This document shows, one piece after another, positions 20,366 to 64,000 of a stretch of DNA of 64,000 nucleotides. The stretch is from Candidatus Bathyarchaeia archaeon (GTDB lineage: Archaea > Thermoproteota > Bathyarchaeia > Bathyarchaeales > Bathycorpusculaceae). Every line of letters begins with the position of its first letter. The stretch's first letter is position 1. Location of the stretch: positions 128,001 to 192,000 of the forward strand of contig JAVZNC010000001.1 of NCBI GenBank assembly GCA_038882955.1, given 5' to 3'. The translations under genes and the position numbers were made by a program. Under the pieces are notes generated by a model. It worked only from the letters and a program-made list of their open reading frames with translations, had not been told where the DNA came from and searched no databases.

Positions 20366-20380
20366 AAGGAGGAAGCAAAT

Positions 20381-24998: not shown

Positions 24999-25017
24999 AA
25001 ATAAAGTGGGGGGATGT

Positions 25018-32200: not shown

Positions 32201-32324
32201 TTGCGCCCTCGTCGATAAGGTACACTTTGAAGCCAGAATCAGCCAAGTCCAAGGAAGCTTGGATTCCAGCAACTCCTCCGCCGACAACGAGAACTGCGCC
32301 AACTTTTTGGTTCTTGTCTGCCAT
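29295..32324 (-). CDS. hdrA: Heterodisulfide reductase subunit A, large two-FAD-module form (1009 aa)
   Basis: [17 protein letters not shown], ferredoxin insert, QCVGSRD..CSAACC; second module CHCG..CTP..GGGVSG..QCVGAR..CARICC; C-terminal 2x[4Fe-4S]. Confidence 0.92.
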
Positions 32325-32325
32325 C

Positions 32326-34823: not shown

Positions 34824-34844
34824 ATCGGATATATTAGTGCATTC

Positions 34845-34860
34845 GCGTTAAGTTTAACGC
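34845..34860. promoter_or_regulatory. Perfect inverted repeat GCGTTAA-gt-TTAACGC, candidate operator
   Basis: 7-bp arms with 2-bp spacer, just upstream of the GltD-like/hdr/mvh run. Confidence 0.5.
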
Positions 34861-34896
34861 AAAAATAACATAAAGGTAAAGAAAAGGGGAAATAAT
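34861..34896 (-). terminator. U-rich tract downstream of the RHH-GcvH gene (archaeal-type terminator candidate)
   Basis: Minus strand reads attatttccccttttctttacctttatgttattttt immediately after the stop. Confidence 0.4.
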
Positions 34897-47212: not shown

Positions 47213-49451
<2,239 letters not shown>

Positions 49452-50690
49452 TTACTTTGCCTCCGCAACCTCAAGTCTCAATGGCGGCATAGCTGCAATT
49501 TTTTTGAAGAACTCCTCAAATTTCTGGTTGAAATCGCCTACACAGCGAGGGGAAACCGTGAAAAGCTCGAAACGCTCGAGCAAACCATTCTTTTTAAGAT
49601 AATCTTTAAGGACTTCCATGTTTCTTTCAGCTGCTTCCCTTCCCTCTTGAAGTTTGCAGTCTTCAGCTGAGCAGACAACAGCCATGACGCCGTCGAAGCC
49701 GCCGTGTAGGGCTTCAACAACATGAACGGGGTCAAGAGCCTTGAAACATGGGATTTCCATGGCTACGGCTTTCTTCTTGAAAAGTAGGCATTCTGGGTCG
49801 TCTAGGCAAGAGAATTCTGACCATTGACAGCAAAAGACAAGTATTGACGGAAAGCTGGCTTCGCCCTTCATTTTCCTTGCGGCTTCTCCATAAAGTCTAA
49901 CAAGTTTACTGATATTTTCAAACTCGAAACCCTTAACCTGTATTGCCAAGTGTGGACAAACCAAGGCGCACGCTCCACAGCCCATGCACGCTTCTTGGAT
50001 TATCCGTGGCGTTGCGAACTCTTCGGCTTCTATTGCGCCGTAGGGGCATATGAAAACGCACTTGTCGCAACCAACGCACTTTTCTGTGTCGTAAACAGCT
50101 TTATGCGAATACTTTATCACTTGTAGGGCGTCTTTGCTGAAGCCCAACTGCTCCAGAACGGCTTTTCCAAGCATAAGCCTCCTAGTGTTAATTTTTGTTC
50201 CCCTTTTGAAGCGACAAAACTCATCCTCGCATTGAATTGAAATCACGTTTTTGATGCCGGAATTCAAAGCCTTGAAAACAAATTCTGTTGGCACACGACC
50301 AGAACACGGAATCCGCAAAGGAATATAATCCTTCACGTTCAAGCCTTGAACCTTCAAGATTTCTTCAATCTCGCAAGTTGCGGGAGAATTGCCACGACAC
50401 ATCAAAACAAGCGTTTCGCTCTTGTTTCTCTCGCGCATACACTCCAAATATTCCATCAAATTTTCGTAGTTGTAGTAGACAATTTCTATGGCTAATGATG
50501 GGCAAGCGCTGTAACATATCCCGCAGACTTGGCACTTTTGAATGTCAATCTCGAAATTGCCGCTTTCTGGATCCCGCTTTATAGCCTCGTAGGGACAAAC
50601 AGCATAGCAAACCGCACATTTGCTGCAATAATCCTGATTTATGCGCACTGCGGCGGCGCATGCAGCTTCATTCATGCACCATTTCTCCAC
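49452..50690 (-). CDS. Tandem (2x[4Fe-4S] ferredoxin + MvhD-like)x2 Fe-S protein
   Basis: Fd (CSKCAVCYAVCP, CQVCGICYSACP), MvhD-like (MCR..IPCSGR..QCEDEFC), Fd (CVGCDKCVFICP, CMGCGACALVCP), MvhD-like (CCQW..IPCF..VCSAEDC). Confidence 0.82.
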   Translation of the reverse strand: MEKWCMNEAACAAAVRINQDYCSKCAVCYAVCPYEAIKRDPESGNFEIDIQKCQVCGICYSACPSLAIEIVYYNYENLMEYLECMRERNKSETLVLMCRGNSPATCEIEEILKVQGLNVKDYIPLRIPCSGRVPTEFVFKALNSGIKNVISIQCEDEFCRFKRGTKINTRRLMLGKAVLEQLGFSKDALQVIKYSHKAVYDTEKCVGCDKCVFICPYGAIEAEEFATPRIIQEACMGCGACALVCPHLAIQVKGFEFENISKLVRLYGEAARKMKGEASFPSILVFCCQWSEFSCLDDPECLLFKKKAVAMEIPCFKALDPVHVVEALHGGFDGVMAVVCSAEDCKLQEGREAAERNMEVLKDYLKKNGLLERFELFTVSPRCVGDFNQKFEEFFKKIAAMPPLRLEVAEAK

Positions 50691-50779
50691 TGTCTAGCGT
50701 AAACTTGCCTCACGCCTAACGCGAGGGTTAGAAGATTTTTGATGACAGTTCCAATAATATAATGGTTTTGGAGCATAAC

Positions 50780-51715
50780 CTAGGGTTTGTAATAGTAAGG
50801 TCTGCGGATATAACCATAAGCCTCAAGTGCAGCGGTTATGCCCTGCCCAACAGCCGTTCCAACCTGCTTCACCGGATGGTTTGTGACATCTCCAGCCGCG
50901 TAAACCCCTGTAATGTTTGTTCTCTGGCGGATGTCAATTGTTATGTAGCCTTCCTCGTTTACGGCTACGCCTGCTTCTTTGGCTAGTTGGCTGTTTGGGT
51001 CTTCGCCAACTTGTATGAATACGCCATCTACAGGCAACTCGCTGGTTTCGTTAGTTTTGTTGTTGAAAATCACAGCCTTGTTCACGAGTTTTTCGCCTAT
51101 AATCTCCTTAACCTCAGTGTTCCACAAAATTTCCACGTTGGCTTTTTCCTTCAATGCCTTAACGAGCGCTTCCTCAGCCCTAAAAGCGTCTCGCCTATGA
51201 GAAACCTTGACCTCGCCAGCAATTTCAGCCATATACAAAGCTGTTACAACAGCGGAATTGCCGCCACCAACGACAAGGACACGCTTGCCTTTAAATAATG
51301 GTCCATCGCAGATGCCGCAGTAGCTTACGCCTCTTCCACGAAACTCTTTTTCGCCTGGAACACCTAATTCGCGATAATGCGAACCAGACGCAATTATGAC
51401 CGCTTTAGCTTCATAGGTGGCTTTGTTTGTCTTTATCAGCTTGACTTCGCCTTTTAAGTTCATGCTTAAAACTTTTTCAAATTCGCGTATTGTAACGCCA
51501 ACTTTTCTGCAGTGCGCCGCCATTTTCTGGGCTAGCTCAATGCCACTTATGCTTTTGAATCCTGGATAATTTTCAATTAGCGGGGCGTCAGCCGTTGTGC
51601 CCCCAGCCATTTTCTCCTCTAAAACCAGCGTTTTTAGTCCACTTCTTGCGCCGTAGATTCCAGCCGCTAAACCAGCGGCGCCTCCGCCTATAATAATTAG
51701 GTCCCAATTTTCCAT
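50780..51715 (-). CDS. trxB: Thioredoxin-disulfide reductase
   Basis: GGGAAG, IENYPG, GRGVSYCGICDG, GGGNSA, HRRD-x-FRA, AAGD; start set at ATG 51715 after GAGGA RBS. Confidence 0.93.
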   Translation of the reverse strand: MENWDLIIIGGGAAGLAAGIYGARSGLKTLVLEEKMAGGTTADAPLIENYPGFKSISGIELAQKMAAHCRKVGVTIREFEKVLSMNLKGEVKLIKTNKATYEAKAVIIASGSHYRELGVPGEKEFRGRGVSYCGICDGPLFKGKRVLVVGGGNSAVVTALYMAEIAGEVKVSHRRDAFRAEEALVKALKEKANVEILWNTEVKEIIGEKLVNKAVIFNNKTNETSELPVDGVFIQVGEDPNSQLAKEAGVAVNEEGYITIDIRQRTNITGVYAAGDVTNHPVKQVGTAVGQGITAALEAYGYIRRPYYYKP

Positions 51716-51772
51716 GGCGACATCCTCTTCTTTAGTATTCTGTTGCCTAGTTCTTATCAAGTTTGCATATGT

Positions 51773-51919
51773 TTAATCATCTTCGTCAATTTCGAAGTCA
51801 AGTTCGCTTATTTCCATTTCGTAGCATTCTTGGCATAAGCCATCAAAAAGTTCGTATTCCTCCTGTGAGATTTGCTTTCCGCATAGTAGGCATCTGTAAA
51901 CTTCTGCTTCATCGCCCAT
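51773..51919 (-). CDS. 48-aa acidic CxxC/CxxC micro-protein (not in ORF track)
   Basis: Hand translation MGDEAEVYRCLLCGKQISQEEYELFDGLCQECYEMEISELDFEIDEDD*; ATG directly follows the TGA of the paralogous upstream ORF. Confidence 0.8.
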   Translation of the reverse strand: MGDEAEVYRCLLCGKQISQEEYELFDGLCQECYEMEISELDFEIDEDD

Positions 51920-52111
51920 TCACATGACATCTCCAAACATGTCTTCGGATTCTTCTGTCATCTGATCGTCCCAGCACTCCCAACACATACCATCAAAATT
52001 CTCGTACTCGTCCTCGTCAATTTCGCAACCGCAAACCTCACAGTAAAACTTCTTTTCGCTTTCCTCTCCAGAAGCCTTACGCTTCTTTTTCTGTTTCTTC
52101 AAGCAGATCAC
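51920..52111 (-). CDS. Acidic CxxC/CxxC micro-protein with basic N-terminal tail
   Basis: KKQKKKRK..FYCEVCGCEIDEDEYENFDGMCWECWDDQM; start GTG 52111 or TTG 52102 (ORF track extends to 52156). Confidence 0.75.
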   Translation of the reverse strand: MICLKKQKKKRKASGEESEKKFYCEVCGCEIDEDEYENFDGMCWECWDDQMTEESEDMFGDVM

Positions 52112-52173
52112 TAAATAATTTAACTGTCGCGTTGATGTAAAAACATTTTGAAGCACAAATCAATAAAAGTTCG

Positions 52174-53295
52174 CTAGATTGCTTGAGCAACGAGCTCAGC
52201 AATGTCTAAAACTTGGATTTTACCCTCATTACCAGTTGTTTTAACAGCATCCTCAATCGTTAATAGACAGAATGGGCAAGCAACAGCCAAAATTTCAGCG
52301 CCAGCGGCAACAGCGTCTTTAACGCGCATCTCAGCCAGTCTTGGTCCTGGAATATCAACCCACATTCTTCCGCCTCCTCCTTCGCAGCATAGGCTTCTGG
52401 CTCTTGAACGGTCAAACTCCAGAAGCGTTACGCCTGGAATGCTCTCAATTATTTTGCGCGGTTCTTCGTATATGCTGTTTTGTTTGCCCAAGAAGCATGG
52501 ATCATGATAAATTACTTTCTTTTTTACTTCTTTTGTAAACGTCAGTTTTTTCTCATCTACGAGTTTGGCTAGCAGTTGCGTGTGGTGGAGTGGCTCAAAG
52601 CTTGTTTGGTTGTAGCGGTTTTTGAAGGCGTGGAAGCCGTGTGGACAGTTTGTTACGGCTTGTTTGATGGCGTATTTGTTGAAGATTTTCATGTTCTCCT
52701 CAACTAGGAACTCGAACAGTCCTTTCTCGCCCATGCCGTAAACTTCGCTTCCGCAGCAGTTTTCCTCTTCGCCTAAAACGCCGAAGTTCACTCCAGCCTT
52801 TTGAAGGCATAAAACGAGGCTTTTTGCTACGCTTTGGACGCGGGGGTCGTAAGCCGATGTGCAGCCAACATAGTAGAGGATTTCGGCGCCTTGTGAAATA
52901 TGTTTGACGTTTAAGCCTTGGCTCCATTCAGTGCGTTTGCTTCGGATTCTAGCCCACGGGTTCCCATTCTTAAATATGCTTTCAAGCGCATCGCGTATCG
53001 TAGGCGCTATCTGCCCTTCTTCAACAGCCATACTTCTAATGTCAATTAGAAACTCGTAAGGGTTCAAGTCTTTTGGGCAGCGGACACCGCATGTGGAGCA
53101 TGTTGTGCAGCTCCATAACTCGTTTTGCGGGTGGATTGCTAACCGTCCAAGTGCGGAGACCTCGCGCATGTAACGTCTAATGTTTAGGTTGGCTTTTTTC
53201 GCTACTGGGCAGCTGCCCGTGCACATTCCGCATTGTATGCATTCGAGAAGCTTGTGTTTTTGGATTAGTTCTTGAACGTTCATTTTAGATGTCAC
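52174..53295 (-). CDS. Soluble HdrD/GlpC-like Fe-S oxidoreductase (2x[4Fe-4S] + two CCG domains)
   Basis: CIQCGMCTGSCP, WSCTTCSTCGVRCP, YVGC..NCCG..NCPH, YHDPC..LCCEGG..ACPFC; no TM segments. Confidence 0.88.
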   Translation of the reverse strand: MTSKMNVQELIQKHKLLECIQCGMCTGSCPVAKKANLNIRRYMREVSALGRLAIHPQNELWSCTTCSTCGVRCPKDLNPYEFLIDIRSMAVEEGQIAPTIRDALESIFKNGNPWARIRSKRTEWSQGLNVKHISQGAEILYYVGCTSAYDPRVQSVAKSLVLCLQKAGVNFGVLGEEENCCGSEVYGMGEKGLFEFLVEENMKIFNKYAIKQAVTNCPHGFHAFKNRYNQTSFEPLHHTQLLAKLVDEKKLTFTKEVKKKVIYHDPCFLGKQNSIYEEPRKIIESIPGVTLLEFDRSRARSLCCEGGGGRMWVDIPGPRLAEMRVKDAVAAGAEILAVACPFCLLTIEDAVKTTGNEGKIQVLDIAELVAQAI

Positions 53296-53383
53296 TTTGA
53301 CTGATTTCTGGGAGTAAGATTTTTAATAAGTGTTTTCCCTTCTATGAGTCAAAACATACATTGGAGAACGGAGATTACTCGTC

Positions 53384-55750
53384 ATGGAAAAGAAAACGCC
53401 GAGAATCGGAATTTTTGTCTGCGAATGCGGCGGAAACATAGGCGACGTGGTGGATGTTAAAGCTGTTGTTGACGCTGTTAAAAATTGGGAAGGCGTCGTC
53501 GTAGCCAAACAACACAAGTACCTTTGCTCAAAACCAGCACAAGAGATGATAATTGAAGCCGTAAAAAAGAACAACCTTGACCGAGTTATCGTCGCAAGTT
53601 GTACGCCGCGCATGCACTTACCAACATTTCAAAGTGTTTTGGAAAGGGCTGGACTGAACCCCCACATGCTTGAGTTTGTAAATATCCGCGAACAAAGCTC
53701 ATGGGTTCATGGTCCACACGCCTCGGCGGAAGCCACAAAGAAAGCCATAAGCCTAATCCGAGGCGGTTATGAAAGAAGCTTTGAGCTTGAACCTTTAGAA
53801 ACTATAAGTGAGAAAGGCTCAAGGGAAATACTAATAGTCGGCGGCGGCATCGCCGGAATAACAGCCGCTCTTGAGCTTGGATATTTAGGTTATAAGGTGC
53901 ACCTTGTAGAGCGAAAGCCAAGCATAGGCGGCAACATGGCAAAACTCACAAAAGTTTTTCCAACATTGGACTGCGCCCAATGCATTTTGACACCTAGGAT
54001 GGCGGAGGTGGGAAGAAACCCAAACGTGAACTTGCTGACGTATGCTGAAGTGCAAGAGGTAAGTGGAAGACCAGGCAATTACAAGGTTAAGGTCTTCATG
54101 AAGCCTAGAGGCGTGGACGTTGAAAAGTGCAGAAGCTGTGGCGTATGCGCTAAAGTTTGTCCAATAACTGTTCCAGACGAGTTTAATGAAAGCTTAATGC
54201 AGCGAAAAGCCGCATACATCGAGTTTCCACAGGCGGTTCCATCAGCCTACGTTATAGATTTTAACGCTTGCAATAAATGCCGAAAATGCGAGCAGCTTTG
54301 CCCAGCAAAAGCCATAAACATAGATGACGCTGGCAAGGTTGTTGAATTGAACGTTGGCGCGATAATTCTGGCTACGGGATACCAGCTTTACGACGCGCGA
54401 AAACTGGAGATTTATGGTTATGGCACATACAAAGACGTAATAACAATGATGGAGCTGGAGAGGCTAACGTCAGCAACTGGACCAACAGGCGGTTTTGTTA
54501 AAAGGGCTGACGGAAACGATGTCAGGAAAATAGCAATTGTCCTCTGCGCTGGCTCACGCGACAAAAATTACATCCCATACTGTAGCCGCATCTGCTGCAT
54601 GTACTCGCTAAAGCAAGCGTTTGTGCTAAAGAAGATGCTTGGAATAGACGTAACCATCTACTACATCGACATTAGGGCAACTGGAAAGGGCTATGAAGAC
54701 TTGTACTGGCGCGACCAAGAGGCAGGCGTAGTCTTCATCAAGGGCAAAGTTGCTGAAATCTACAAGAACAACGCAAATGGCAAGCTTGTGGTTCTGGCTG
54801 AAGACACTTTGACTGGCGAAATGCGAGAAGACGAGTATGACATGGTTGCTTTGGCTACACCCATGGTTCCGCCAGCAGGACTTAAGGAACTTGCCGAAAA
54901 AATGAAGGTGGCAATTGGCGAAGACGGCTTCATAACGGAGAAGCATCCGAAACTTGACCCCGTAGACTCGCTTGTGACTGGAATTTTCGCTTGCGGATGT
55001 ACCCTAAGCCCGAAAGACGTTAGGGATACGGTTTCAGACGGTTTGGGCGCAGCGGCAAGAGCGGCGCTTTTCCTCAAAAGCGAATATGTCACCACAAGCC
55101 CAGAAAAAGCTTATGTCATCGCGGACTTGTGCAATGGCTGTCAAGCATGTGTGCCAATTTGTCCCGTAAACGCTATAACAATGGTTGAAGGAAAAGCGAA
55201 AATAGACCCGTTCCAATGCGTCGGATGCGGGGCATGCATACCAGCGTGCCCACAAGAAGCTATAGACTTTAAGAATGCTACGACAAAGCAGATTCTCGCG
55301 ACGTTGAGGGGCGTTCTGGCGGAAAAACAAGCTGGAGAAGTAAGGATAGTAGCTTTTGTTGACAAGAATGTTGGTTACACTGGAATAGACTTTTTGGGAT
55401 TAGACAGAACAAACTATCCAGAAAATGTGCGTATAGTTGCCGTGCCATCAACGGCAATCTTGGGATTAAAACATATTCTCTACGCTTTTGCTTATGGCGC
55501 GGACGGTATACTAGTGATTGAAGGTTCAGAGGAGATAGACGAGAAGTTCACGAAGAAACGCATGATTGACATGGGAAGAGACCTAGCAAAATACGGCGTA
55601 GAATCGATGCGCTTGCGCTATAGTTATGTTCCACTGCCAGTTTACAAGAAGGCAGCAGAACTTTTCACAATGTTCACGGACAGAATAAAGAAGTTTGGAC
55701 CCCTCGCAGAGGAGAAAAGAACCAACATAAAGCAGCAACTAAAAATTTAG
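53384..55750 (+). CDS. hdrA: HdrA (copy 3) fused to a cysteine-less MvhD-like domain
   Basis: CECGGNI, YLCS, SCTP, GGGIAG, FPTLDCAQC, LCAGSRD..CSRICC, C-terminal ferredoxin, then YPENVRIVAVPST..GADGILV without Cys. Confidence 0.9.
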   Translation: MEKKTPRIGIFVCECGGNIGDVVDVKAVVDAVKNWEGVVVAKQHKYLCSKPAQEMIIEAVKKNNLDRVIVASCTPRMHLPTFQSVLERAGLNPHMLEFVNIREQSSWVHGPHASAEATKKAISLIRGGYERSFELEPLETISEKGSREILIVGGGIAGITAALELGYLGYKVHLVERKPSIGGNMAKLTKVFPTLDCAQCILTPRMAEVGRNPNVNLLTYAEVQEVSGRPGNYKVKVFMKPRGVDVEKCRSCGVCAKVCPITVPDEFNESLMQRKAAYIEFPQAVPSAYVIDFNACNKCRKCEQLCPAKAINIDDAGKVVELNVGAIILATGYQLYDARKLEIYGYGTYKDVITMMELERLTSATGPTGGFVKRADGNDVRKIAIVLCAGSRDKNYIPYCSRICCMYSLKQAFVLKKMLGIDVTIYYIDIRATGKGYEDLYWRDQEAGVVFIKGKVAEIYKNNANGKLVVLAEDTLTGEMREDEYDMVALATPMVPPAGLKELAEKMKVAIGEDGFITEKHPKLDPVDSLVTGIFACGCTLSPKDVRDTVSDGLGAAARAALFLKSEYVTTSPEKAYVIADLCNGCQACVPICPVNAITMVEGKAKIDPFQCVGCGACIPACPQEAIDFKNATTKQILATLRGVLAEKQAGEVRIVAFVDKNVGYTGIDFLGLDRTNYPENVRIVAVPSTAILGLKHILYAFAYGADGILVIEGSEEIDEKFTKKRMIDMGRDLAKYGVESMRLRYSYVPLPVYKKAAELFTMFTDRIKKFGPLAEEKRTNIKQQLKI

Positions 55751-55884
55751 GCTTTCAGAAACTGCTAAATTCGATACTCCCCTCTAGTTTTTTGGCAGCT
55801 AATGTTTGAAATGCAGCAGAAACAAGCAAAAGTTATATGAAAACGGTTTGTTATCAACTCTTCACAATTTGAGAGGGAAAAACT

Positions 55885-56673
55885 TTGGACATTATTGTTT
55901 GTGTTAAGCATGTTCCAGAAACCGCAGAGGCGGAACTGAAAATCCACGCAAGCGGAAAAGCCATAGAAAAAACGGGATTGGTCTTTGACATCAACGAGTG
56001 GGACGACTACGCACTTGAGGAGGCGGTGCGCATAAAAGAGAAGCTCGGCGGAACAGTCACAGCCATAACCGTAGGCGCAGAAGATTCTGACAGCACACTG
56101 CGAAAGTGCCTAGCACGAGGCGCAGACAAAGCCATACGCGTTTCAGACCCAAAATTTGAAGGTTCAGACGGCTATGCAACAGCAAAAATCCTACACAGCA
56201 TAATCAAAAACCTGCATTACGACTTGATTTTGACTGGTTTTCAGGCTGGGGATGACGGCTACTCGATGGTTGGTCCAATACTGGCTGAAATGCTTGGGAT
56301 ACCGCACGCAGCACTTGTTAAGAAAATTGAGTTGGGAGCTGGAACAGCGCGAGTTAACCGTGAACTTGAAGGCGGAATAGAAGAAGTCTTGGAAGTTAGG
56401 CTTCCAGCGCTTTTTGCAGTGCAAACAGGCATAAACGAGCCACGCTACGTTTCAATAATGGGCATACGCAAGGCAATGCAAAAGGAGATAAAAGTCGTAA
56501 GCTTGGCGGAAACTGGACTGAGCGAGGCGGATGTCGGCGAAGCAGGCTCATGGCTTAGAATAGAGAAGCTTTACGTGCCGCCAGTAGAAAAGCAAGCGGA
56601 ATTCCTCAAGGGAAGCCCAGACGAGGTTGCAGCGAAAATTGTTGAAATTCTCAAGTCGAGGGGGCTGATATAA
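55885..56673 (+). CDS. etfB: Electron transfer flavoprotein beta subunit
   Basis: IIVCVKHVP, INEWDDYALEEA, ARGADKA, NEPRY. Confidence 0.94.
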   Translation: MDIIVCVKHVPETAEAELKIHASGKAIEKTGLVFDINEWDDYALEEAVRIKEKLGGTVTAITVGAEDSDSTLRKCLARGADKAIRVSDPKFEGSDGYATAKILHSIIKNLHYDLILTGFQAGDDGYSMVGPILAEMLGIPHAALVKKIELGAGTARVNRELEGGIEEVLEVRLPALFAVQTGINEPRYVSIMGIRKAMQKEIKVVSLAETGLSEADVGEAGSWLRIEKLYVPPVEKQAEFLKGSPDEVAAKIVEILKSRGLI

Positions 56674-57663
56674 ATGGCGGGAATATTCGTTTTAGCAGAG
56701 CATAGGCAAGGGCAAATACGGGACATAACGTATGAGATGCTGACAAAGGGTAAGGAAATAGCCGAAAAGGCGAATGCTGAACTGACAGCCATCCTACTAG
56801 GCAAGGACATTAGAGAAAAGGCGAAGACGCTTTCAGAGTATGCTAAAAAAGTTTTGGTGGTAGGAGACGCGAAGCTTGAAAACTTCAATTCAGAAGCCTA
56901 CCAGAAAGTGCTCTCAAGCCTAATCAAGGAAGAGAAGCCACTACTGACGATGGTTGGACACACTTCTTGCGGTGTGGAGCTTGCGCCTAGGCTTGCCGCC
57001 GCGTTGGGCATCCCGCTCGCAACAGATTGCATAGACCTGTCCTTTGAAAGCGAAAACCTAACGGTGACGAGGCAAATGTACGGCGGCAAAGTCAACGTCA
57101 AAGCTTCGCTTAAAAAGGCAGAAAGCTACATGGTCACGGTGCGCCAAGCAGCCTTCACAGCCAAAAAGCCAGAACCACCATTAAACGGAGAAATAATAGA
57201 AAAACCATCGCCACTAGCCGAAGAAATAACAACAAAACGATTCATAGAATATGTTTTGCCGCCGCCAGGAGGAGTGGACATAACAGCAGCAGAAAAGCTC
57301 GTTGGCATAGGAAGGGGCATAAAAGACCAGGCGAACATGCCGTTGATGGAGGAATTCGCAAAAACGTTGGGCGCAGTTCTCGCCTGTTCAAGACCAGTTG
57401 TGGATAAGGGTTGGCTTCCAAGCGACCGCCAAGTTGGCAGTTCGGGAAAAACAGTTAAGCCTAAACTTTACATTGCAGTTGGCATAAGCGGCGCCTTCCA
57501 ACACGTGCTGGGAATGAAGAACTCCGACCTAATCATAGCAATAAACAAGGACCCGAACGCGCCGATATTCAGCTTTTCAGACTACGGCGTGGTTGACGAC
57601 TTGTTCAAAGTTGTGCCAGCCTTAAAGAACAAGATAGCAGAGTTAAAAGGACAAAAGACGTAA
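56674..57663 (+). CDS. etfA: Electron transfer flavoprotein alpha subunit
   Basis: TRQMYGG, GRG, SRPVVD, QVGSSGKTV, GISGAFQH, AINKDPNAPIF. Confidence 0.95.
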   Translation: MAGIFVLAEHRQGQIRDITYEMLTKGKEIAEKANAELTAILLGKDIREKAKTLSEYAKKVLVVGDAKLENFNSEAYQKVLSSLIKEEKPLLTMVGHTSCGVELAPRLAAALGIPLATDCIDLSFESENLTVTRQMYGGKVNVKASLKKAESYMVTVRQAAFTAKKPEPPLNGEIIEKPSPLAEEITTKRFIEYVLPPPGGVDITAAEKLVGIGRGIKDQANMPLMEEFAKTLGAVLACSRPVVDKGWLPSDRQVGSSGKTVKPKLYIAVGISGAFQHVLGMKNSDLIIAINKDPNAPIFSFSDYGVVDDLFKVVPALKNKIAELKGQKT

Positions 57664-57686
57664 AATCACTGGAGGAGAAAGCCAAA

Positions 57687-58841
57687 ATGGAATTTAAACT
57701 AACAGCGGAACAGCTTGAAATAAAGAAGGCAGCACGCGAGTTCGCAGAAAAAGAGTTCACGCCGGAACTCGCCTTGGAATACGACCAGAAAGAAGAGTTT
57801 CCAATGGCGCTGTACAAGAAGGCTGCACACCTCGGATTTACAGGCATGCGCATTCCACAAGAATACGGCGGACAAGGCTACGGCGTACTAGAAGAATGCA
57901 TTGTCGTTGAAGAATTTTGCCGAGTAGACCCGGGTTTGGGCGTGGCAGTGTCCCTAGGCAACCTTATGGTTCCAGACGTGCTGCTGAAACACGGCACGGA
58001 ACAGCAGAAAGAAAAGTATATTCCGCCGCTGGCGAAAGGCGAAAAAATAGCCGCTGCAGCCTTCACAGAACCAGAACATGGAAGCGACATAACACGCATG
58101 AACACAACAGCGGTGAAAAGCGGAAACGAATGGATAATAAATGGCGACAAACAGTTCATTACAAACGCGCCGATAGCAGACACGTTCATAATACTGTGCC
58201 AAACAGACCCCAACGCGCAGCCGCCACACCGCGGACAAAGCCTATTCCTAGTGGAAAAGGGCACGCCGGGGCTGGACGCAACAAAACTGCATGGAAAAAT
58301 GGGCATAAAACCATGCATTACGGGTTCACTTGCACTTTCCGACTTAAAAGTGCCAGAAACAAACCTTATAGGCGAATTGAACAAGGGCTTCTATTACGCT
58401 TTGGAACTTTTCGATGGAACACGCATAACTGTTGCAGCCCAAGCAGTCGGAATGGCTCAAGGAGCATTTGAACGCGCATTAAACTATGCGAAAACGCGAA
58501 AACAGTTTGGTCAACCAATAATAAACTTCCAAGGCGTAGCATTCAAACTGGCTGAAATGGCAATGAAGATTGAGGCAGCGCGCCTAATGACGTATAAGGC
58601 AGCTTGGCTTTACGACAAAGAAAAGCCGAACCCCGCGGCAACTTCGATGGCTAAAGCCTACGCTAGTCGCGTGGCAATGGAGGTTACCGACGACGCTATA
58701 CAGATTCTCGGCGGATACGGTTATTTAGCGGACTATCATGTGGAGCGTTTCCACCGCTGCGCGAAGATAACGGAAATCTATGAAGGAACAACCGAGGTTC
58801 AGAAACTCACTATAGTAAACTTCTTACAGAAACAGGCATAA
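57687..58841 (+). CDS. Acyl-CoA dehydrogenase (copy 1)
   Basis: FTEPEHGSD, NGDKQFITN, RKQFGQPI, QILGGYGY, IYEGT. Confidence 0.94.
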   Translation: MEFKLTAEQLEIKKAAREFAEKEFTPELALEYDQKEEFPMALYKKAAHLGFTGMRIPQEYGGQGYGVLEECIVVEEFCRVDPGLGVAVSLGNLMVPDVLLKHGTEQQKEKYIPPLAKGEKIAAAAFTEPEHGSDITRMNTTAVKSGNEWIINGDKQFITNAPIADTFIILCQTDPNAQPPHRGQSLFLVEKGTPGLDATKLHGKMGIKPCITGSLALSDLKVPETNLIGELNKGFYYALELFDGTRITVAAQAVGMAQGAFERALNYAKTRKQFGQPIINFQGVAFKLAEMAMKIEAARLMTYKAAWLYDKEKPNPAATSMAKAYASRVAMEVTDDAIQILGGYGYLADYHVERFHRCAKITEIYEGTTEVQKLTIVNFLQKQA

Positions 58842-58947
58842 CCAAATTTCGCCTTTTTCTCTTTTAATCCATAATTAGGCGCGTAATTTCAAAGCTTTTA
58901 TACGCTCTCAACGCATTATTCTATATTCTCTAAAAGGAGGAAGTATT

Positions 58948-60138
58948 TTGTCTATCGGAAAAATTCAAAAAGCGGCTGTTATCGGTTCTGGGGCGATGGG
59001 ACATGGAATTACACAGCTTTTAGCCATGACTGGACACACGGTTACAATGGTTGACGTAAGCGATGATTTTCTCCAAAAGGGGATGGAAAAAATCAGGTGG
59101 AGTCTAGAAAAATTTGTTGAAAAGAAAAGAGTTAGACGGGAAGATGCTGACGCTGCGCTGGCAAGGATAAGCACAACAACAAGTTACGAGCAAGCCGCGG
59201 GGGATATAGACCTAGCAATAGAGGCGGTTCCAGAAAACATTGACTTAAAAAAGAAAGTTTTCGCAACGCTGGACTCCATAGCGCCACCGCATGCAATTTT
59301 GGCATCAAATACATCAACGCTGAGCATAACGGAGATGGGAAGGGCCACAAAACGTCCAGACAAAGTTGCTGGAATGCACTTCTTCAACCCGCCGCAACTC
59401 ATGGCGCTGGTGGAAGTGATAAAAGGCGAAGAAACAAGCCAAGAGACGCTAAACACGCTTATAGAACTCGCCAAAAAACTTGGAAAAACACCAGTAACAG
59501 TACGAAAAGACGTTAGAGGCTTCATAGTAAACAGAATTTTAGGCGCAGTCTTTAATGAGGCGTTCTGGGCTTATCACAGAGGCGAAACAACAAAGGAGGG
59601 AATAGACGCTTCGGTGAAATATACGGGCGGTTTTCCAATGGGATGGTTCGAACTCGCAGACTTCGTCGGGCTAGACATAGCCTACGAAGTAGGAAAAATA
59701 TTGTACGAGGCTTATGGCGAAAGAATGAAGCCATGCATAGAAGTAATAGAACCACTAATAAAGGAACGCAAATTCGGACAAAAGACAGGCGTAGGCTTCT
59801 ATGACTGGACGAAAGGGAGACCACGCATACCATTCAACCTACTCGAAGAATACGACGTCGAAAGGTCATGGGCAGTAGCAGCAAACGAAGCAGCATGGCT
59901 AGTCCACGACGACGCAGCAAACCCAGAAGACATAGACACTGGAATGAAACTTGGCACATATTGGCCTTCAGGACCATGCGAATACGCTGACAGAGTCGGC
60001 TTAGACGTTATAGTTGGCAAGTTGAAGGAGTTACACGCAAAATATAACATGGAAATGTATAAGCCATGTCCACTCCTAGAAGATTACGTTAGCAAAGGTT
60101 GGACGGGTAAAAAGGCTGGAAGGGGGTTCTACCATTGA
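58948..60138 (+). CDS. 3-hydroxyacyl-CoA dehydrogenase (duplicated C-terminal domain)
   Basis: GSGAMGHGI, EAVPE, SNTS, GMHFFNP, GFIVNR, two D-x-VGLD..G-x-K-x-G-x-GFY repeats. Confidence 0.93.
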   Translation: MSIGKIQKAAVIGSGAMGHGITQLLAMTGHTVTMVDVSDDFLQKGMEKIRWSLEKFVEKKRVRREDADAALARISTTTSYEQAAGDIDLAIEAVPENIDLKKKVFATLDSIAPPHAILASNTSTLSITEMGRATKRPDKVAGMHFFNPPQLMALVEVIKGEETSQETLNTLIELAKKLGKTPVTVRKDVRGFIVNRILGAVFNEAFWAYHRGETTKEGIDASVKYTGGFPMGWFELADFVGLDIAYEVGKILYEAYGERMKPCIEVIEPLIKERKFGQKTGVGFYDWTKGRPRIPFNLLEEYDVERSWAVAANEAAWLVHDDAANPEDIDTGMKLGTYWPSGPCEYADRVGLDVIVGKLKELHAKYNMEMYKPCPLLEDYVSKGWTGKKAGRGFYH

Positions 60139-61289
60139 AGTTTGAGCTGACAGAAGAACAAATTGGAATTGTGAACGCGGTTAGGGAGTTCTGCCAAAAA
60201 GAGTTCAAACCAGAAATAGCCCTAGAACTCGACAGAAAAGAAGAGTATCCAATGGAAATATACAAGAAAGCAGCACAGCTAGGATTCACAAGCATGTTCT
60301 TCCCACAAGAGTACGGCGGACAGGGCTATGGGTTGCTTGAAACATGCCTCGTCATCGAAGAAATGTGCAGGGCAGACTCGTCGCTTGGCGTAGCAGTTTC
60401 AAGCGGAAACTTTGGAAGCGAGCTAATACTCGCGTATGGAACAAAGGAGCAGAAGGAAAAATATTTGCCGCCAATTTGCAAGGGCGATTTTACATCAGCA
60501 GCAGCGTTCACAGAGCCGAACGTCAGCGGAAGCGACATAACGCGTATGGAAACGACAGCTACAAAATATGGAAACGAATGGTGGATAAACGGAACAAAAA
60601 CCTTCATAACAAACGCAACAATCGCCAACTTCATAGTCGTACTAACACAAACAGACACCAAAGTGAGACCAACATACAGAGGCGAAACGCTTTTCGTGGT
60701 GGACAAAGGCACGCCGGGACTAGAAACAACAAAGCTTCACGACAAGATGGGAATCAGATGCTCCGTCACAGGCGAAGTAAAATTTGACAACGTGAAAGTG
60801 ACAGACGCAAACATAGTAGGCGAACTGAATAGGGGATTCTACTACTCAATGGAGTTCTTCGACAAAACAAGAGTTGGCGTAGCAGCCCAAGCAGTTGGAA
60901 TGGCACAAGGCGCATGGGAAATAGCATTCAAATATGCAAAACAAAGGGAAGCCTTCGGACAGCCAATACTACAGCATGAGCTGATAGGATGCGGGCTAGC
61001 AGAAGCCATGACAAAAATCGAGGCGGCAAGATGGCTAACGTATAGGGCAGCATGGCTCATAGACGCTGGAAAAATGGACCCGATGGCAACAGCCATGGCG
61101 AAACAATACGCAAGCCGCGTGGCAATGGAAGTCACAGACTTTGCAATACAAACACTTGGCGGATACGGCTACTTAGGCGATTACCGCGTTGAACGTTATC
61201 ACCGAGACGCGAAAATAACCGAAATCTACGAGGGGACAAGCGAAATTCAGAAACTCACGGTGTTAAAGTATCTGCTGCGGAAGTTCTAG
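60135..61289 (+). CDS. Acyl-CoA dehydrogenase (copy 2)
   Basis: FTEP..GSD, NGTKTFITN, REAFGQPI, QTLGGYGY, IYEGT. Confidence 0.94.
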   Translation: MKFELTEEQIGIVNAVREFCQKEFKPEIALELDRKEEYPMEIYKKAAQLGFTSMFFPQEYGGQGYGLLETCLVIEEMCRADSSLGVAVSSGNFGSELILAYGTKEQKEKYLPPICKGDFTSAAAFTEPNVSGSDITRMETTATKYGNEWWINGTKTFITNATIANFIVVLTQTDTKVRPTYRGETLFVVDKGTPGLETTKLHDKMGIRCSVTGEVKFDNVKVTDANIVGELNRGFYYSMEFFDKTRVGVAAQAVGMAQGAWEIAFKYAKQREAFGQPILQHELIGCGLAEAMTKIEAARWLTYRAAWLIDAGKMDPMATAMAKQYASRVAMEVTDFAIQTLGGYGYLGDYRVERYHRDAKITEIYEGTSEIQKLTVLKYLLRKF

Positions 61290-61328
61290 AACTATGAAAA
61301 ATGATAATAATTATGCGCAACAAAATGT

Positions 61329-62132
61329 GTGCGTGGTGAAAATATGAGTAAAGCGTATGAAACGATAAAAGTGGAAAGAGAACAAAGCGTGTTGTGGATA
61401 ATACTGAACAGGGCGCATAGGCTTAACGCCTTCAACGACGTTATGCTTGAAGAACTTGGCGACGTATTAGATACTGCAGAAAAAGACCCATCAGTCAAGT
61501 GCATAGTAATAACCGGTGAGGGCGACAGGGCTTTCAGCGCGGGCGCAGATGTTACAATGTTTCCTAAGGCAACGCCAGCGAAAGCCGAAGAATTCTCAAG
61601 ATTTGGACAGAAAATCTTCGGAAAAATAGAGGAAATGTCAAAGCCAGTAATCGCGGCGATAAACGGCTTCGCCCTAGGCGGAGGACTAGAACTGGCATTA
61701 GCATGCGACTTCAGAGTGGCAGCAGAACATGCAGAACTCGGAAGCCCAGAAATAGCCCTGGGTTTAATTCCAGGATGGGGCGGAACACAGCGGCTTGTTA
61801 GAATCGTTGGTTTAGCCAAAGCCAAAGAAATGGTTATGCTTGGCGTGCGCGTCAAGGCAGAAGAAGCCCTAAAAATAGGTTTAGTCCACAAGGTTGTGCA
61901 CTTTGACAAGTTACGGGACGAGGTTAGAGCCTTAGCGAACACGCTTGCGGAAGGACCGCCAATAGCGATGAAATATGCGAAACACGCCTTAAACTTTGGG
62001 ACACAAGTGCCGTTGGAGGTTGGCTTGCGCCTAGAATCTGGACTTATGGGCTTGGCGTTCTCAACTGAAGACTTAAAAGAAGGCGTGGAAGCGTTCATGT
62101 CGAGACGCAAGGCTGAATTCAAAGGCAAATAA
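61329..62132 (+). CDS. Enoyl-CoA hydratase (crotonase)
   Basis: AFSAGAD, NGFALGGGLELALACD, PE-x-x-LGLIPGWGGTQRL; start may be ATG at 61344. Confidence 0.94.
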   Translation: MRGENMSKAYETIKVEREQSVLWIILNRAHRLNAFNDVMLEELGDVLDTAEKDPSVKCIVITGEGDRAFSAGADVTMFPKATPAKAEEFSRFGQKIFGKIEEMSKPVIAAINGFALGGGLELALACDFRVAAEHAELGSPEIALGLIPGWGGTQRLVRIVGLAKAKEMVMLGVRVKAEEALKIGLVHKVVHFDKLRDEVRALANTLAEGPPIAMKYAKHALNFGTQVPLEVGLRLESGLMGLAFSTEDLKEGVEAFMSRRKAEFKGK

Positions 62133-62206
62133 AGCGGACAGCTAATCTCTTTTCCCATCTTTTTTCACACATCAAAATTCGCTTCAAAATTGAGTGTGGT
62201 GTCAAA

Positions 62207-63379
62207 ATGAGAAAAGTCGCAATTATAGGTGTTGGAAACTCAAAATTTGGAGTTAGAAACGACGTGAATATTGCTGAACTAGCATTTGAAGCAGTTAAGC
62301 CATCACTTGAAGATGCGGAAATAACCGCCAAAGACGTAAAGTTTGTAGCCCTAGGCTCTGTCGGCGCCGGCGCATGGTATGAAGAGCTTCTTCCAGCAGT
62401 TGTCACAGCGGAATATTGCGGTTTAACAAAAGCTGGTTTGGTTCGCTGTGAAGCAGCATGCGCAAGTGGCAGCGCCGCTTTTTTCACGGCTTATTCGGCT
62501 GTTGCCAGCGGTCAAGTGGAAATAGCCATGGCTTTGGGTGTTGAGAAAATGCGTGAAATTGATACGCCTACAGCCATGGAGTGGATTGGAAGGGCTGGCT
62601 ACTACCTTTGGGAGTTCCACAATTTCGGAATGACTTTTCCCGCATATTATGCGTTACATGCCACGGCGCACATGGCAAAGTTCGGAACAACAGAAGAAGA
62701 CCTGGCTTTAGTCGCCGTCAAAAACCACAAGTACGCTTCCATGAACCCTCTTGCGCACCTGCGAAACCAAATAACAGTTGACGACGTGTTATCGTCAATG
62801 GTTATCGCTTCGCCGCTTAAACTATTTGACTGTTGCCCAATGACGGATGGCGCTGCAGCGATAATTCTCGCCTCAGAAGAAAAGGTTAGGCAATTAGGCG
62901 TTGATACGCCAGTTTGGGTTGCTGGAATAGGCTATTCTTCTGGCACAGCAAACCTAAGCAGAAGGCTAGACTATGTGGGTTTAGAGGCAAGTGTTTACGC
63001 TGCGCAGATGGCATACAAGATTGCTGAGGTAACGCCAAACCAAATTGACTTCGCAGTGGTTCATGACTGTTTCACAATAGCCGAATTAATGGCTTACGAA
63101 GACCTTGGGTTCTGTAGCAAGGGCGAAGGAGCAAAACTAATACGCGAAGGACAAACGGAAATAGGCGGAAAAATCCCGGTAAACGTGGACGGAGGCTTAA
63201 AGGCGAAGGGACACCCAATAGGCACGACGGGATGCTCAATGATATACGAAGTTACGAAACAGCTCAGGGAAGAAGCCGTTGAAAAAAGTAGGCAAGTGCC
63301 ACTGAAAAACTACGTTGGACTGGCACATAACGTCGGCGGAACCGGACACTACTGTTATGTAACAATTTTGAGGAGGTAG
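62207..63379 (+). CDS. Archaeal (SCP-x-type) acetyl-CoA acyltransferase / thiolase
   Basis: EAACASG, DGAAA, HDCFT, GGLKAKGHPIG, HNVGG. Confidence 0.92.
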   Translation: MRKVAIIGVGNSKFGVRNDVNIAELAFEAVKPSLEDAEITAKDVKFVALGSVGAGAWYEELLPAVVTAEYCGLTKAGLVRCEAACASGSAAFFTAYSAVASGQVEIAMALGVEKMREIDTPTAMEWIGRAGYYLWEFHNFGMTFPAYYALHATAHMAKFGTTEEDLALVAVKNHKYASMNPLAHLRNQITVDDVLSSMVIASPLKLFDCCPMTDGAAAIILASEEKVRQLGVDTPVWVAGIGYSSGTANLSRRLDYVGLEASVYAAQMAYKIAEVTPNQIDFAVVHDCFTIAELMAYEDLGFCSKGEGAKLIREGQTEIGGKIPVNVDGGLKAKGHPIGTTGCSMIYEVTKQLREEAVEKSRQVPLKNYVGLAHNVGGTGHYCYVTILRR

Positions 63380-63383
63380 GTGC

Positions 63384-63812
63384 ATGTCAGCCATGCCATC
63401 AATAAAATCGAGGGAAATCAAAATTGTCCAAGAAATACCAATAGGCAAAACGCTGAAGTTCTGGGAAGGCTTGAAAGAAGGAAAAGTTTACGCATCAAGA
63501 TGCACAAAATGTGGAAAAATATATTTTCCACCAGTAGCGGACTGCCCAGAATGCCTAACATCAAACATGGAATGGACAGAACTAAGCAACGAGGCGGAAA
63601 TCGAAACTTTTACGCATGTTGTTGTTAGACCAACATCCTTCCAGCAGAACAAACCATACACTGTAGCTATTGGAAGACTCAAGGAAGGCGTTAAGGTGCT
63701 CGCTTGGCTTACGGGATTTAAGCTCTCACAAGTCAAAGTTGGCATGAAAGTTAAGCTTACGGCTAAAGTTACGCCAGAAGGAAACCTAACATACGAGTTT
63801 GTCCCACTGTAA
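63384..63812 (+). CDS. DUF35 Zn-ribbon/OB-fold thiolase partner
   Basis: FWEGL, CTKCG..FPP..CPEC, OB-fold tail; follows thiolase. Confidence 0.92.
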   Translation: MSAMPSIKSREIKIVQEIPIGKTLKFWEGLKEGKVYASRCTKCGKIYFPPVADCPECLTSNMEWTELSNEAEIETFTHVVVRPTSFQQNKPYTVAIGRLKEGVKVLAWLTGFKLSQVKVGMKVKLTAKVTPEGNLTYEFVPL

Positions 63813-63926: not shown

Positions 63927-64000
63927 ATGTCTCCGAGAAAGAAGAAGGAGAAAGAGAAAGAAGCCGAGAAGCCCTTGGAAAAGCCTTGGTTGAAGGTTTG
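63927..64000 (+). CDS. Partial gene, probably long-chain acyl-CoA synthetase N-terminus
   Basis: Hand translation MSPRKKKEKEKEAEKPLEKPWLKV.. runs off the window; KPWLK resembles FadD N-termini and fits beta-oxidation context. Confidence 0.45.
   Translation, partial: MSPRKKKEKEKEAEKPLEKPWLKV

Follow-up and report, generated by a model that had tools for sequence, protein, structure and literature searches.

The 64,000-nucleotide stretch of DNA analysed here (the window, G000:C1:128001-192000) belongs to a 1.54-Mb genome of 31 contigs that is 95.6% complete and 6.1% contaminated, and the nearest relatives of its proteins are labelled Candidatus Bathyarchaeia / Bathycorpusculaceae. Towards its end lies a beta-oxidation gene cluster that includes genes that encode an electron-transfer flavoprotein (ETF, subunits EtfB and EtfA) and an HdrA-type flavoprotein; a gene for a soluble HdrD-like iron-sulfur protein is divergent from hdrA (Table 1). 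We called genes from the listing of open reading frames (ORFs) together with Pfam, and used NCBIfam for family-level scoring. The gene list of the original prediction was reproduced in every named gene and coordinate by ORFs and Pfam, and so was its 88-bp divergent gap between hdrD-like and hdrA, given a GTG start for hdrD-like. Many relatives of the HdrD-like protein are 369 aa long, and an ATG four codons inside the GTG start would make the gap 100 bp. An A/T-rich TTTTTAATAA box, read from the sequence ~55 nt before the hdrA ATG, is a putative promoter element.

The genes from hdrA to DUF35 all lie on the plus strand, with intergenic gaps of -4 to 134 bp. The last gene of this co-directional string, absent from the original prediction, encodes an acyl-CoA synthetase, starts 114 bp past DUF35 and crosses the window end. 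Since the operon reaches the acyl-CoA synthetase, the locus encodes activation and all four steps of beta-oxidation.

Table 1. Genes and features of the locus, with positions in the window and the analyses behind each assignment
Feature	Position	Strand	Basis
HdrD-like Fe-S protein, 373 aa, soluble; Fer4_8/Fer4_17 (two 4Fe-4S dicluster motifs) and 2x CCG	52174..53295	-	Pfam
Divergent intergenic region hdrD-like/hdrA, 88 bp; presumably holds both promoters	53296..53383		sequence reading
HdrA with fused C-terminal MvhD/FlpD domain, 788 aa, HdrA2-like	53384..55750	+	Pfam, PDB, NCBIfam
EtfB, 262 aa, motif LTGFQAGDDGYSMVGP; probably AMP-type (non-bifurcating)	55885..56673	+	Pfam, sequence comparison
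EtfA, 329 aa, without N-terminal ferredoxin domain	56674..57663	+	Pfam
Acyl-CoA dehydrogenase 1, 384 aa	57687..58841	+	Pfam; NCBIfam top match AcrC, 416 bits, under cut-off
3-Hydroxyacyl-CoA dehydrogenase, 396 aa	58948..60138	+	Pfam, NCBIfam
Acyl-CoA dehydrogenase 2, 384 aa	60135..61289	+	Pfam, NCBIfam
Enoyl-CoA hydratase (crotonase), 267 aa	61329..62132	+	Pfam
Thiolase, 390 aa	62207..63379	+	Pfam, NCBIfam
DUF35 / ChsH2-type zinc-ribbon and OB-fold protein, 142 aa (thiolase partner)	63384..63812	+	Pfam
AMP-forming acyl-CoA synthetase, 581 aa; start only in window, whole gene G000:C1:191927-193672	63927..64000	+	PF00501 match, genome ORF
Thioredoxin reductase (50780-51760); (ferredoxin-MvhD)x2, 412 aa (49452-50690); NfnA/SudB-like (48612-49451); NfnB/GltD-like (47213-48631)	47213..51760	-	Pfam, NCBIfam

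The HdrD-like protein resembles known partners of ETF far more than it resembles disulfide reductase subunits. Against solved structures it matched M. smegmatis EtfD (9ojn) with 201 bits (E 2.5e-58, residues 58-371), compared with 66.6 bits for HdrC and 23.6 bits for HdrB. Likewise, a Foldseek search with its AlphaFold2 model (pLDDT 79, pTM 0.78) returned EtfD at the top (E 6e-25, TMq 0.77, 34% identity) and HdrB next (TMq ~0.5). No NCBIfam equivalog was matched, the best score being 176 bits for TfrB against a cut-off of 385. We surveyed its relatives as the best 150 cluster representatives at 50% identity. Ninety of these have the EMO/EtfD architecture, being at least 590 aa long with at least three N-terminal hydrophobic segments, and the ones scanned have a NarI-like domain; 15 are of middle length (the scanned ones are SdhB-CCG fusions) and 31 are short soluble proteins. 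The chain encoded in the window begins at the first cubane motif, and by hydropathy the N-terminal membrane part is absent; only one 19-mer is hydrophobic (residues 329-347), and it belongs to the second CCG domain as its conserved core.

The cubane 4Fe-4S motifs of the HdrD-like protein comprise Cys19/22/25/29 and Cys63/66/69/73. Its second CCG motif is complete (C267, C303-C304, C340, C343). The first domain has C145, C180-C181 and C217, then an invariant His219, and Gly replaces the fourth Cys of EtfD; the motif thus ends CPHG, not CXXC, and relatives read SPHC. HdrB carries two copies of CX31-39CCX35-36CXXC, and the HdrD-like protein departs from this at its first motif. By sequence and fold it is related to EtfD/EMO and BamD, has no membrane anchor, and is not a typical HdrD.

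Phylogeny gave a consistent picture. Of the 58 Bathyarchaeial loci, 23 entered a FastTree phylogeny of 101 rows, alongside the query, 80 species-genome loci and the SdhB-CCG protein of the window, and the GlcF-like protein of the genome served as outgroup; near-duplicates L004-L006 and the remaining Bathyarchaeial rows were omitted to limit its size. A second tree was made with IQ-TREE in 'quick' mode from 57 rows. Both trees give the same four groups, and the branching order among these groups is unresolved. The query falls in a soluble clade (34 rows, support 95, in FastTree; 24 rows, SH-aLRT 97, in IQ-TREE) whose members have HdrA and/or ETF as neighbours. It is made up of a Bathyarchaeial sub-clade and of sequences labelled Chloroflexota, Thermodesulfobacteriota, Bacillota and Myxococcota. 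Separate from it stands a soluble BamD clade (40 rows and 15 rows, support 96). This includes the Geobacter locus L077, whose genes run AOR-ferredoxin-HdrD-like-double HdrA (1037 aa)...NuoF-like and which we identify as a bam cluster. The membrane forms, all with etfBA adjoining, make up the third group (clades of 11 and 3 rows with support 98 and 100; clades of 7 and 2 rows with 97 and 100), and an SdhB-CCG clade the fourth. As the query clade is separate in both trees, the HdrD-like protein represents a third, soluble branch beside two branches with members that work with ETF.

Two observations on these relatives are recorded here. A BamD-like subclade (L023, L052, L136, L137 and L143) comes from Chloroflexota, another Bathyarchaeial family and one Asgard genome. 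Its loci are HdrA-HdrA-HdrD-like-EtfA-EtfB strings in which EtfB reads CGEESSDG(A/S)TGQVPP, near the bifurcating motif, and going by sequence they may represent a different, doubly bifurcating design. The nearest paralogue of the HdrD-like protein in the genome (42% identity) is a TfrB-like SdhB-CCG fusion (Fer2_3, Fer4 and 2x CCG, 521 aa), which follows an SdhA/FrdA flavoprotein on the plus strand (window 18665-21946); AOR and ferredoxin genes come after.

HdrA is a full-length canonical protein with all domains, residues 4-647 matching methanogen HdrA (8rvu_a) with 646 bits and residues 652-775 matching MvhD chains. Its top NCBIfam match was HdrA2 (NF040770), with 851 bits under a cut-off of 1100. 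With the Mvh-linked HdrA-MvhD paralogue of the window it shares 37% identity, and with the HdrAs beside other Bathyarchaeial HdrD-like orthologues 59-88%, indicating that the HdrA beside HdrD-like is an orthologous line of its own. A further HdrA-related protein lies in a second Hdr island of the window (24498-35487, minus strand), which comprises HycI, MvhA, MvhG, HdrB, HdrC, MvhD and a 1009-aa double HdrA-like protein, and continues with MvhD-like, GltD-like and GcvH-like proteins, the second bearing a ferredoxin tail and the third a ribbon-helix-helix domain at its N terminus. The 1009-aa protein has two FAD domains, a build like that of the 1037-aa BamE-type protein of L077.

The original prediction had also noted that EtfB lacks the DGDTAQVGP motif of bifurcating ETFs, and the reading holds. 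Residues 118-131 of EtfB are GFQAGDDGYSMVGP; in the aligned motif region three bifurcating chains (4kpu_B, 6fah_B, 5ol2_B) read CGRQAIDGDTAQVG / DGDTAQVG(P/S), and the window EtfB reads TGFQAGDDGYSMVG / DDGYSMVGP, differing from DGDTAQVGP at five of nine positions. EtfB scored 200 bits against the ETF of Methylophilus W3A1, which contains AMP according to the title of a reference, and lower against bifurcating ETFs (A. fermentans 132, CarD 129, C. difficile 125, T. maritima FixA 115 and LctB 110 bits). Its LTG..(D/N)DG pattern recurs in six of eight EtfBs encoded beside membrane EMO-type proteins, which are 48-52% identical to it; the ETFs of such proteins are described as non-bifurcating in PMC8805022. 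EtfBs of the BamD-like 'AE' subclade read CGEESSDG(A/S)TGQV. Furthermore, EtfA is without the N-terminal ferredoxin domain found in CarE and LctC. Taken by sequence, the ETF of the window is probably non-bifurcating. Two residues were considered as markers and dropped: the Asp of EtfB aligned to A. fermentans Asp93', which is found in the AMP-type Methylophilus ETF too, and A. fermentans EtfA Arg146, for which the comparison covered the aligned Arg of bifurcating LctC, matched in the window EtfA. Both are non-diagnostic.

We then asked how far the linkage extends. Window proteins were compared with species-genome loci by tblastn, and some loci were also scanned with Pfam. Several bacterial members of the query clade carry the same genes in other orders: crotonase-3-hydroxyacyl-CoA dehydrogenase-thiolase-acyl-CoA dehydrogenase (ACAD)-ACAD-HdrD-like-EtfB-EtfA-HdrA-MvhD in L012, HdrA::GltD chimera-HdrD-like-HdrA-EtfB-EtfA in L013, HdrD-like-EtfB-EtfA-HdrA in L020, and HdrD-like-EtfBA followed by a GltD-like gene in L017 and L021. 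GltD/Nfn-type neighbours occur in 5 of 11 bacterial clade-mates. The linkage thus is not unique to this genome, since L012, L013 and L020 as well as Bathyarchaeial loci carry HdrD-like, EtfBA and HdrA contiguously, and it recurs in Bathyarchaeia, Chloroflexota, Thermodesulfobacteriota and Bacillota. Because it is found across phyla in differing gene orders, the arrangement is more than chance.

Within Bathyarchaeia we used a class sample of 301 genomes and retained 58 places, namely the best-scoring down to ~E 1e-136 and four weaker ones; synteny counts rest on the 54 with an HdrD-like protein of at least 52% identity. HdrA is adjacent in 32 of the 54 and divergent wherever its identity is at least 59%. 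The etfBA pair adjoins HdrD-like or its HdrA in 26, and 33 hold an ETF anywhere in the stretch. An ETF is present in each of the 52 sampled genomes that carry an HdrD-like orthologue (E <= 1e-125), as compared with 159 of 248 others (n=300). In the window's own family (48 genomes), 14 have both the orthologue and an ETF, 2 an ETF only and 32 neither, so that every one of the 14 orthologue holders has an ETF. As the sampled genomes are kin, this phyletic pattern is suggestive and not a statistic. Two hot-spring sequencing runs yielded short contigs, mostly 90-95% alike and hence from relatives, and probably of DNA; one contig spans the divergent intergenic region, which does not bear on expression or co-transcription. 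The co-occurrence in Bathyarchaeia and Asgard genomes proposed as a check is seen in the Bathyarchaeia, where the linkage is loose; among 201 sampled Asgard genomes, 3 have an HdrD-like orthologue of at least 53% identity, too few to say much.

The genome has one ETF pair, and no membrane-bound acceptor for it came to light. Five CCG proteins are encoded, none of them anchored, four in the window and one beside a GlcD-like oxidase. ETF-QO/FixCX, a NarI/HdrE-like gene and MqnA/D were looked for in this 95.6%-complete genome and not found; MqnA/D were found in none of the 301 Bathyarchaeia either, a count that does not tell genomes with the soluble form from those with the membrane form, and the search did not take in each gene of the classical Men pathway. 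A single UbiA-family gene is present. These results agree with the original prediction, which would have been contradicted by a membrane ETF:quinone reductase elsewhere in the genome. MCR (alpha) was likewise looked for and not found, and CoM-S-S-CoB is therefore not expected in the organism. Two candidates were rejected in this search. The only PF05187 (ETF-QO) match, at C4:38114-38350, is no FixX/ETF-QO; it is a dicluster ferredoxin of 104 aa whose gene lies between those for EF-1alpha and superoxide dismutase. The fifth CCG protein (C5:9502-10650) lies beside a GlcD-type FAD oxidase and is GlcF/lactate-dehydrogenase-like, not a partner of ETF.

Other redox enzymes are at hand. The window holds two MvhAG-Hdr sets, an ADP-forming acetyl-CoA synthetase and NfnAB, and the genome CODH/ACS and a 2-oxoacid:ferredoxin oxidoreductase (the latter named from its sequence without a family scan). 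The cluster for a group-4 [NiFe] hydrogenase, which includes Nuo-like membrane subunits, is divided between two contig ends (G000:C5:117488-124852 and G000:C3:188656-191505). The enzyme has a NuoCD-type large subunit (RICGICxxxH, DPCFSCTDR), NuoH/I/J/K and three antiporter-like subunits, and by these features is likely a ferredoxin:H+ ion pump.

Electrons of beta-oxidation, at ~0 mV, cannot reach protons, NAD(P)+ or ferredoxin unaided, and bacteria pass them to membrane EMO/EtfD and (methyl)menaquinone. If there is no quinone, ETF electrons at ~0 mV need some bifurcating or confurcating site. We hold with moderate confidence that ETF, the soluble HdrD-like protein and HdrA are wired together into a quinone-free, Hdr-type bifurcation/confurcation complex. 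Four observations carry this wiring: the gene content, the homology to proven ETF partners, the recurrent linkage, and a genome in which no membrane alternative was found. The non-cubane clusters of the HdrD-like protein would exchange electrons with the alpha-FAD of the sole ETF, and its cubane clusters would connect to the bifurcating FAD of HdrA-MvhD. Electrons would accordingly run between ACAD, ETF alpha-FAD, non-cubane clusters, cubane clusters and HdrA FAD. In such a complex the ETF, linked through the two ACADs to the acyl-CoA/enoyl-CoA couple, would take the position of CoM-S-S-CoB in methanogens, and ferredoxin would be the low-potential arm. The mid-potential partner would enter via MvhD, either as H2 through the MvhAG of the window or as NAD(P)H through (Fd-MvhD)x2-NfnAB; the MvhD fusion and the recurrent GltD/Nfn-type neighbours make both possible.

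Since H2 and NAD(P)H are both possible partners, we favour the wiring and split its direction about evenly. In an oxidative mode, as activated fatty acids undergo beta-oxidation, reduced ETF and reduced ferredoxin would together yield 2 H2 or 2 NAD(P)H, the ferredoxin being reduced by 2-oxoacid oxidoreductases or regenerated by the group-4 membrane hydrogenase. In a reductive mode, H2 or NAD(P)H would reduce enoyl-CoA and ferredoxin, as in Bcd/EtfAB. The relevant potentials are -414 mV for H2, -320 mV for NADH and -140 mV for the heterodisulfide, and crotonyl-CoA/butyryl-CoA lies at -10 mV. For the ETF BamOP a value of about +16 mV is given in bioRxiv 10.64898/2026.04.10.717634. By these potentials the reductive direction runs downhill. 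The oxidative one requires reduced ferredoxin as a co-donor, together with an oxidised NAD(P) pool or else low H2, which our own arithmetic puts at a few Pa; this oxidative, catabolic use is favoured by the acyl-CoA synthetase and the catabolic gene set. We give the oxidative direction slightly less than an even chance and the reductive one somewhat less than even, with the remainder going to both or other modes.

Several points weigh against the proposed wiring, some of them in favour of another one. The presumably co-transcribed hdrA and etfB are separated by a 134-bp gap. Oxidation with NAD(P)+ as acceptor would be uphill at standard potentials, by our own arithmetic. Nine of the 54 Bathyarchaeial loci have neither HdrA nor ETF as a neighbour, several of these at contig ends. 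Among the three Asgard genomes, a Sifarchaeum metagenome-assembled genome of unstated completeness carries a partial, 58%-identical orthologue at a contig end and has no ETF match.

Other points would fit HdrA-MvhD and the HdrD-like protein being an ordinary disulfide reductase, the fused-BC equivalent of HdrA2B2C2, with an ETF that is its neighbour by the chance of a redox island and is re-oxidised otherwise. The window also holds two more complete Hdr sets, Mvh hydrogenases, Nfn, thioredoxin reductase, AOR and Sdh/Tfr-like genes, and adjacency is cheap in DNA so rich in redox genes. In 12 of the 54 loci, including the closest same-family relatives, HdrA and HdrD-like occur with no ETF in the fetched stretch; in five of five such cases tested, an ETF lies elsewhere in the genome. 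HdrA is HdrA2-like, and thioredoxin reductase and two four-Cys mini-proteins lie directly downstream of hdrD-like. The HdrD-like protein has Cys-Cys where mycobacterial EtfD has Cys538-Thr among its cluster ligands (PMC13083937). It thus keeps both Cys-Cys pairs of the CCG motifs, as does HdrB, which makes disulfide chemistry possible. Nevertheless, we consider a disulfide reductase unlikely. It is at odds with a protein much nearer EtfD and BamD than HdrB/HdrC, with a first CCG motif (CPHG) that misses the last Cys of CXXC, and with clade-mates in unrelated bacterial phyla that sit among ACADs, etfBA and hdrA in other orders. It is equally at odds with the presence of ETF in every sampled Bathyarchaeial genome with an orthologue and with MCR not being found, hence with no CoM-S-S-CoB expected, and it would leave the single ETF without an acceptor. 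The disulfide that the original prediction had allowed as an electron outlet gained no support.

HdrA might also be dispensable, with HdrD-like and ETF alone forming the unit and acting as a plain adaptor to another HdrA, to (Fd-MvhD)x2-NfnAB or to ferredoxin, without dedicated bifurcation at this locus. HdrD-like lies directly by etfBA without HdrA in 10 of the 54 loci, and in five such genomes the HdrA line is missing, the best match being 43-52%. Two genomes, G028 (L099 10221-10323) and G031 (L098), show what looks, in sequence, like a deletion scar: an 800-bp spacer between hdrD-like and etfB retains ~100 nt that resemble the window's intergenic region and first hdrA codons (71% identity, E 1e-6), and neither genome has a close HdrA orthologue elsewhere. 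Likewise, the Asgard genomes G342 and G351 have EtfA and two ACADs 3-6 kb from HdrD-like and no HdrA within 19 kb. Furthermore, among the 12 most similar Bathyarchaeial loci (L083-L094), in the window's family, 8 have hdrD-like followed by the string of thioredoxin reductase, (Fd-MvhD)x2, NfnA and NfnB, and two more hold part of it. The HdrA-less loci and the deletion remnants together indicate that HdrA is dispensable in some lineages and is a usual, not an obligate, partner. As a general account of the module, however, the plain adaptor appears improbable, as HdrA is adjacent in most bacterial clade-mates as well as in the majority of the Bathyarchaeial loci, forms a distinct conserved orthologous line, and would supply the energy coupling without which ETF electrons cannot reduce ferredoxin, NAD(P)+ or protons.

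That the ETF itself is of the bifurcating Bcd/EtfAB type, with two FAD, and couples NADH, crotonyl-CoA-type substrates and ferredoxin on its own while the Hdr pair is unrelated, is very improbable given the EtfB scores, its motif common to partners of EMO-type proteins and the plain EtfA, even though EtfB keeps VGP and the Asp aligned to Asp93', the ACADs score best against AcrC, and EtfA reaches 219-192 bits with the bifurcating proteins LctC, CarE, C. difficile EtfA, FixB and A. fermentans EtfA compared with 177 for Methylophilus, which makes a second FAD in the ETF possible. The claim that this is not a bifurcating Bcd/Etf is thus likely and not settled, EtfB speaking for it and EtfA against. 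Together the results leave the ETF/HdrD-like/HdrA wiring of the original prediction standing as a quinone-independent route, given the shared linkage, the lack of a detected membrane reductase and the probable ETF type; what did not stand is HdrA as a fixed member.

Bathyarchaeia abound in sediments; these archaea have many Hdr genes and do not carry out methanogenesis. EMO is tied to fatty-acid users that contain menaquinone (MK) or methylmenaquinone (MMK), raising the question of how quinone-free anaerobes solve the same problem. The locus gives a testable answer on where Bathyarchaeial ETF electrons go and on the role of HdrA in a non-methanogen. If the wiring is true, the BamE-BamD-ETF path would extend from one aromatic-ring reductase to a widespread stand-alone module. 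A more far-reaching reading, which we put forward as a tentative possibility, is quinone-free, syntroph-style reverse electron transport in Bathyarchaeia and scattered anaerobic bacteria. Reduced ETF and reduced ferredoxin would be confurcated at HdrA via the soluble EMO-like protein, giving H2 by MvhD and MvhAG, and the group-4 [NiFe] hydrogenase would spend the ion gradient to regenerate reduced ferredoxin. This would amount to a complete syntrophic fatty-acid oxidation route for quinone-less archaea, and 'Hdr without methane' would then be a bifurcation device of general use, coupled to ETF.

Some neighbouring genes deserve mention. The 412-aa protein downstream of hdrD-like consists of two repeats of a 2x[4Fe-4S] ferredoxin plus MvhD, each half resembling the C-terminal third of HdrA2; next to it, at gaps of 0 and -20 bp, comes a genuine NfnA/NfnB pair. 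The 412-aa protein may be an MvhD-type adaptor docking Nfn onto HdrA, and the module of thioredoxin reductase, (Fd-MvhD)x2 and NfnAB is possibly part of the Hdr-ETF complex. Between thioredoxin reductase and hdrD-like lie tandem small acidic ORFs (51773-51919 and 51920-52156, both on the minus strand) of 48 aa and at most 78 aa, each with a C..C ... FDG.C.EC four-Cys pattern and neither with a Pfam match. Just past the window, the acyl-CoA synthetase is followed by the maturation genes HypF, HypD and HypE (G000:C1:193992-199835), named from sequence features.

The closest known system is BamD-BamE-ETF of Geobacter metallireducens. According to bioRxiv 10.64898/2026.04.10.717634, class II benzoyl-CoA reductase (BCRII) carries out HdrA-type bifurcation in BamE, and the high-potential electron runs via BamD, 'a fusion of HdrBC or HdrD', to a non-bifurcating ETF placed next to the non-cubane clusters of BamD by cryo-ET and enzyme assays. 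The locus resembles it, by its genes, in a soluble HdrBC fusion between an HdrA-type flavoprotein and an ETF that is non-bifurcating, in the window probably so; both are cytoplasmic, and the ETF replaces the heterodisulfide as the high-potential partner, in the window by proposal. BamD-type proteins are 36-41% identical to the HdrD-like protein. Unlike Bam, the window pair has no adjoining BamBC tungsten enzyme or BamGHI NuoEFG-type input; its neighbours are ETF and beta-oxidation genes, and the partner enzymes of its ETF are the ACADs of that operon. Its HdrA is a single canonical protein with fused MvhD, in contrast to the ~1040-aa double BamE, and its HdrD-like protein stands apart from the BamD clade in both trees. 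At the distal non-cubane site of BamD, Cys is changed to Ser, giving [3Fe-4S]; the HdrD-like protein has Gly at the last CXXC position of its first motif, which may correspond to the proximal or to the distal site. The BCRII ETF is described there as re-oxidised by membrane EMO and menaquinone, an outlet not found in the window genome.

The membrane proteins EMO of S. aciditrophicus and mycobacterial EtfD take electrons from ETF and reduce (methyl)menaquinone (PMC8805022, PMC13083937 and bioRxiv 10.64898/2026.08.18.745454). The last of these reports describes a cryo-EM complex of EMO and ETF with the ETF flavin at the non-cubane clusters, and an occurrence of EMO in fatty-acid users containing MK or MMK. 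Their cytoplasmic part is homologous to the HdrD-like protein over all 373 aa (two cubanes and two CCG/NCB domains). Moreover, they too are encoded with etfBA and ACADs, their partner EtfBs having identities of 48-52% and the motif in common with the window EtfB. Unlike them, the HdrD-like protein lacks both the N-terminal membrane domain of five helices with haem b and the quinone site, and is paired with HdrA; it differs from EtfD in Cys-Cys for Cys-Thr and CPHG for CPHC. Unlike EMO hosts, the window genome yielded no MqnA/D and has one UbiA-family gene.

With MvhADG-HdrABC and HdrA2B2C2 the locus shares a full-length HdrA (N-terminal, TrxR, inserted and C-terminal ferredoxin domains) with MvhD fused as in HdrA2. 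The HdrD-like protein corresponds to HdrC and HdrB joined in one chain, and bifurcation to ferredoxin would be expected as in methanogen Hdr. Unlike methanogen Hdr, the B/C part is nearer to ETF-binding relatives, NCBIfam scores fall under the HdrA2 and TfrB/HdrC cut-offs, and MCR was not found. Bcd/EtfAB is a functional analogue only: the net chemistry would likewise link acyl-CoA/enoyl-CoA, ferredoxin and a mid-potential carrier in the cytoplasm, but the bifurcating flavin would be in HdrA and not in EtfB, which is without the motif of solved bifurcating ETFs. We found no literature description of a stand-alone module of this kind; articles dealing with Culexarchaeia, D. multivorans, syntrophic BCFA degraders and AD consortia bring up ETF and Hdr without the module. 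The NCB/BamD trees in the supplements of the two bioRxiv preprints may include such sequences. The parts belong to known families; what is new is a stand-alone version with a beta-oxidation operon, on a branch of its own, in quinone-poor archaea and several bacterial phyla.

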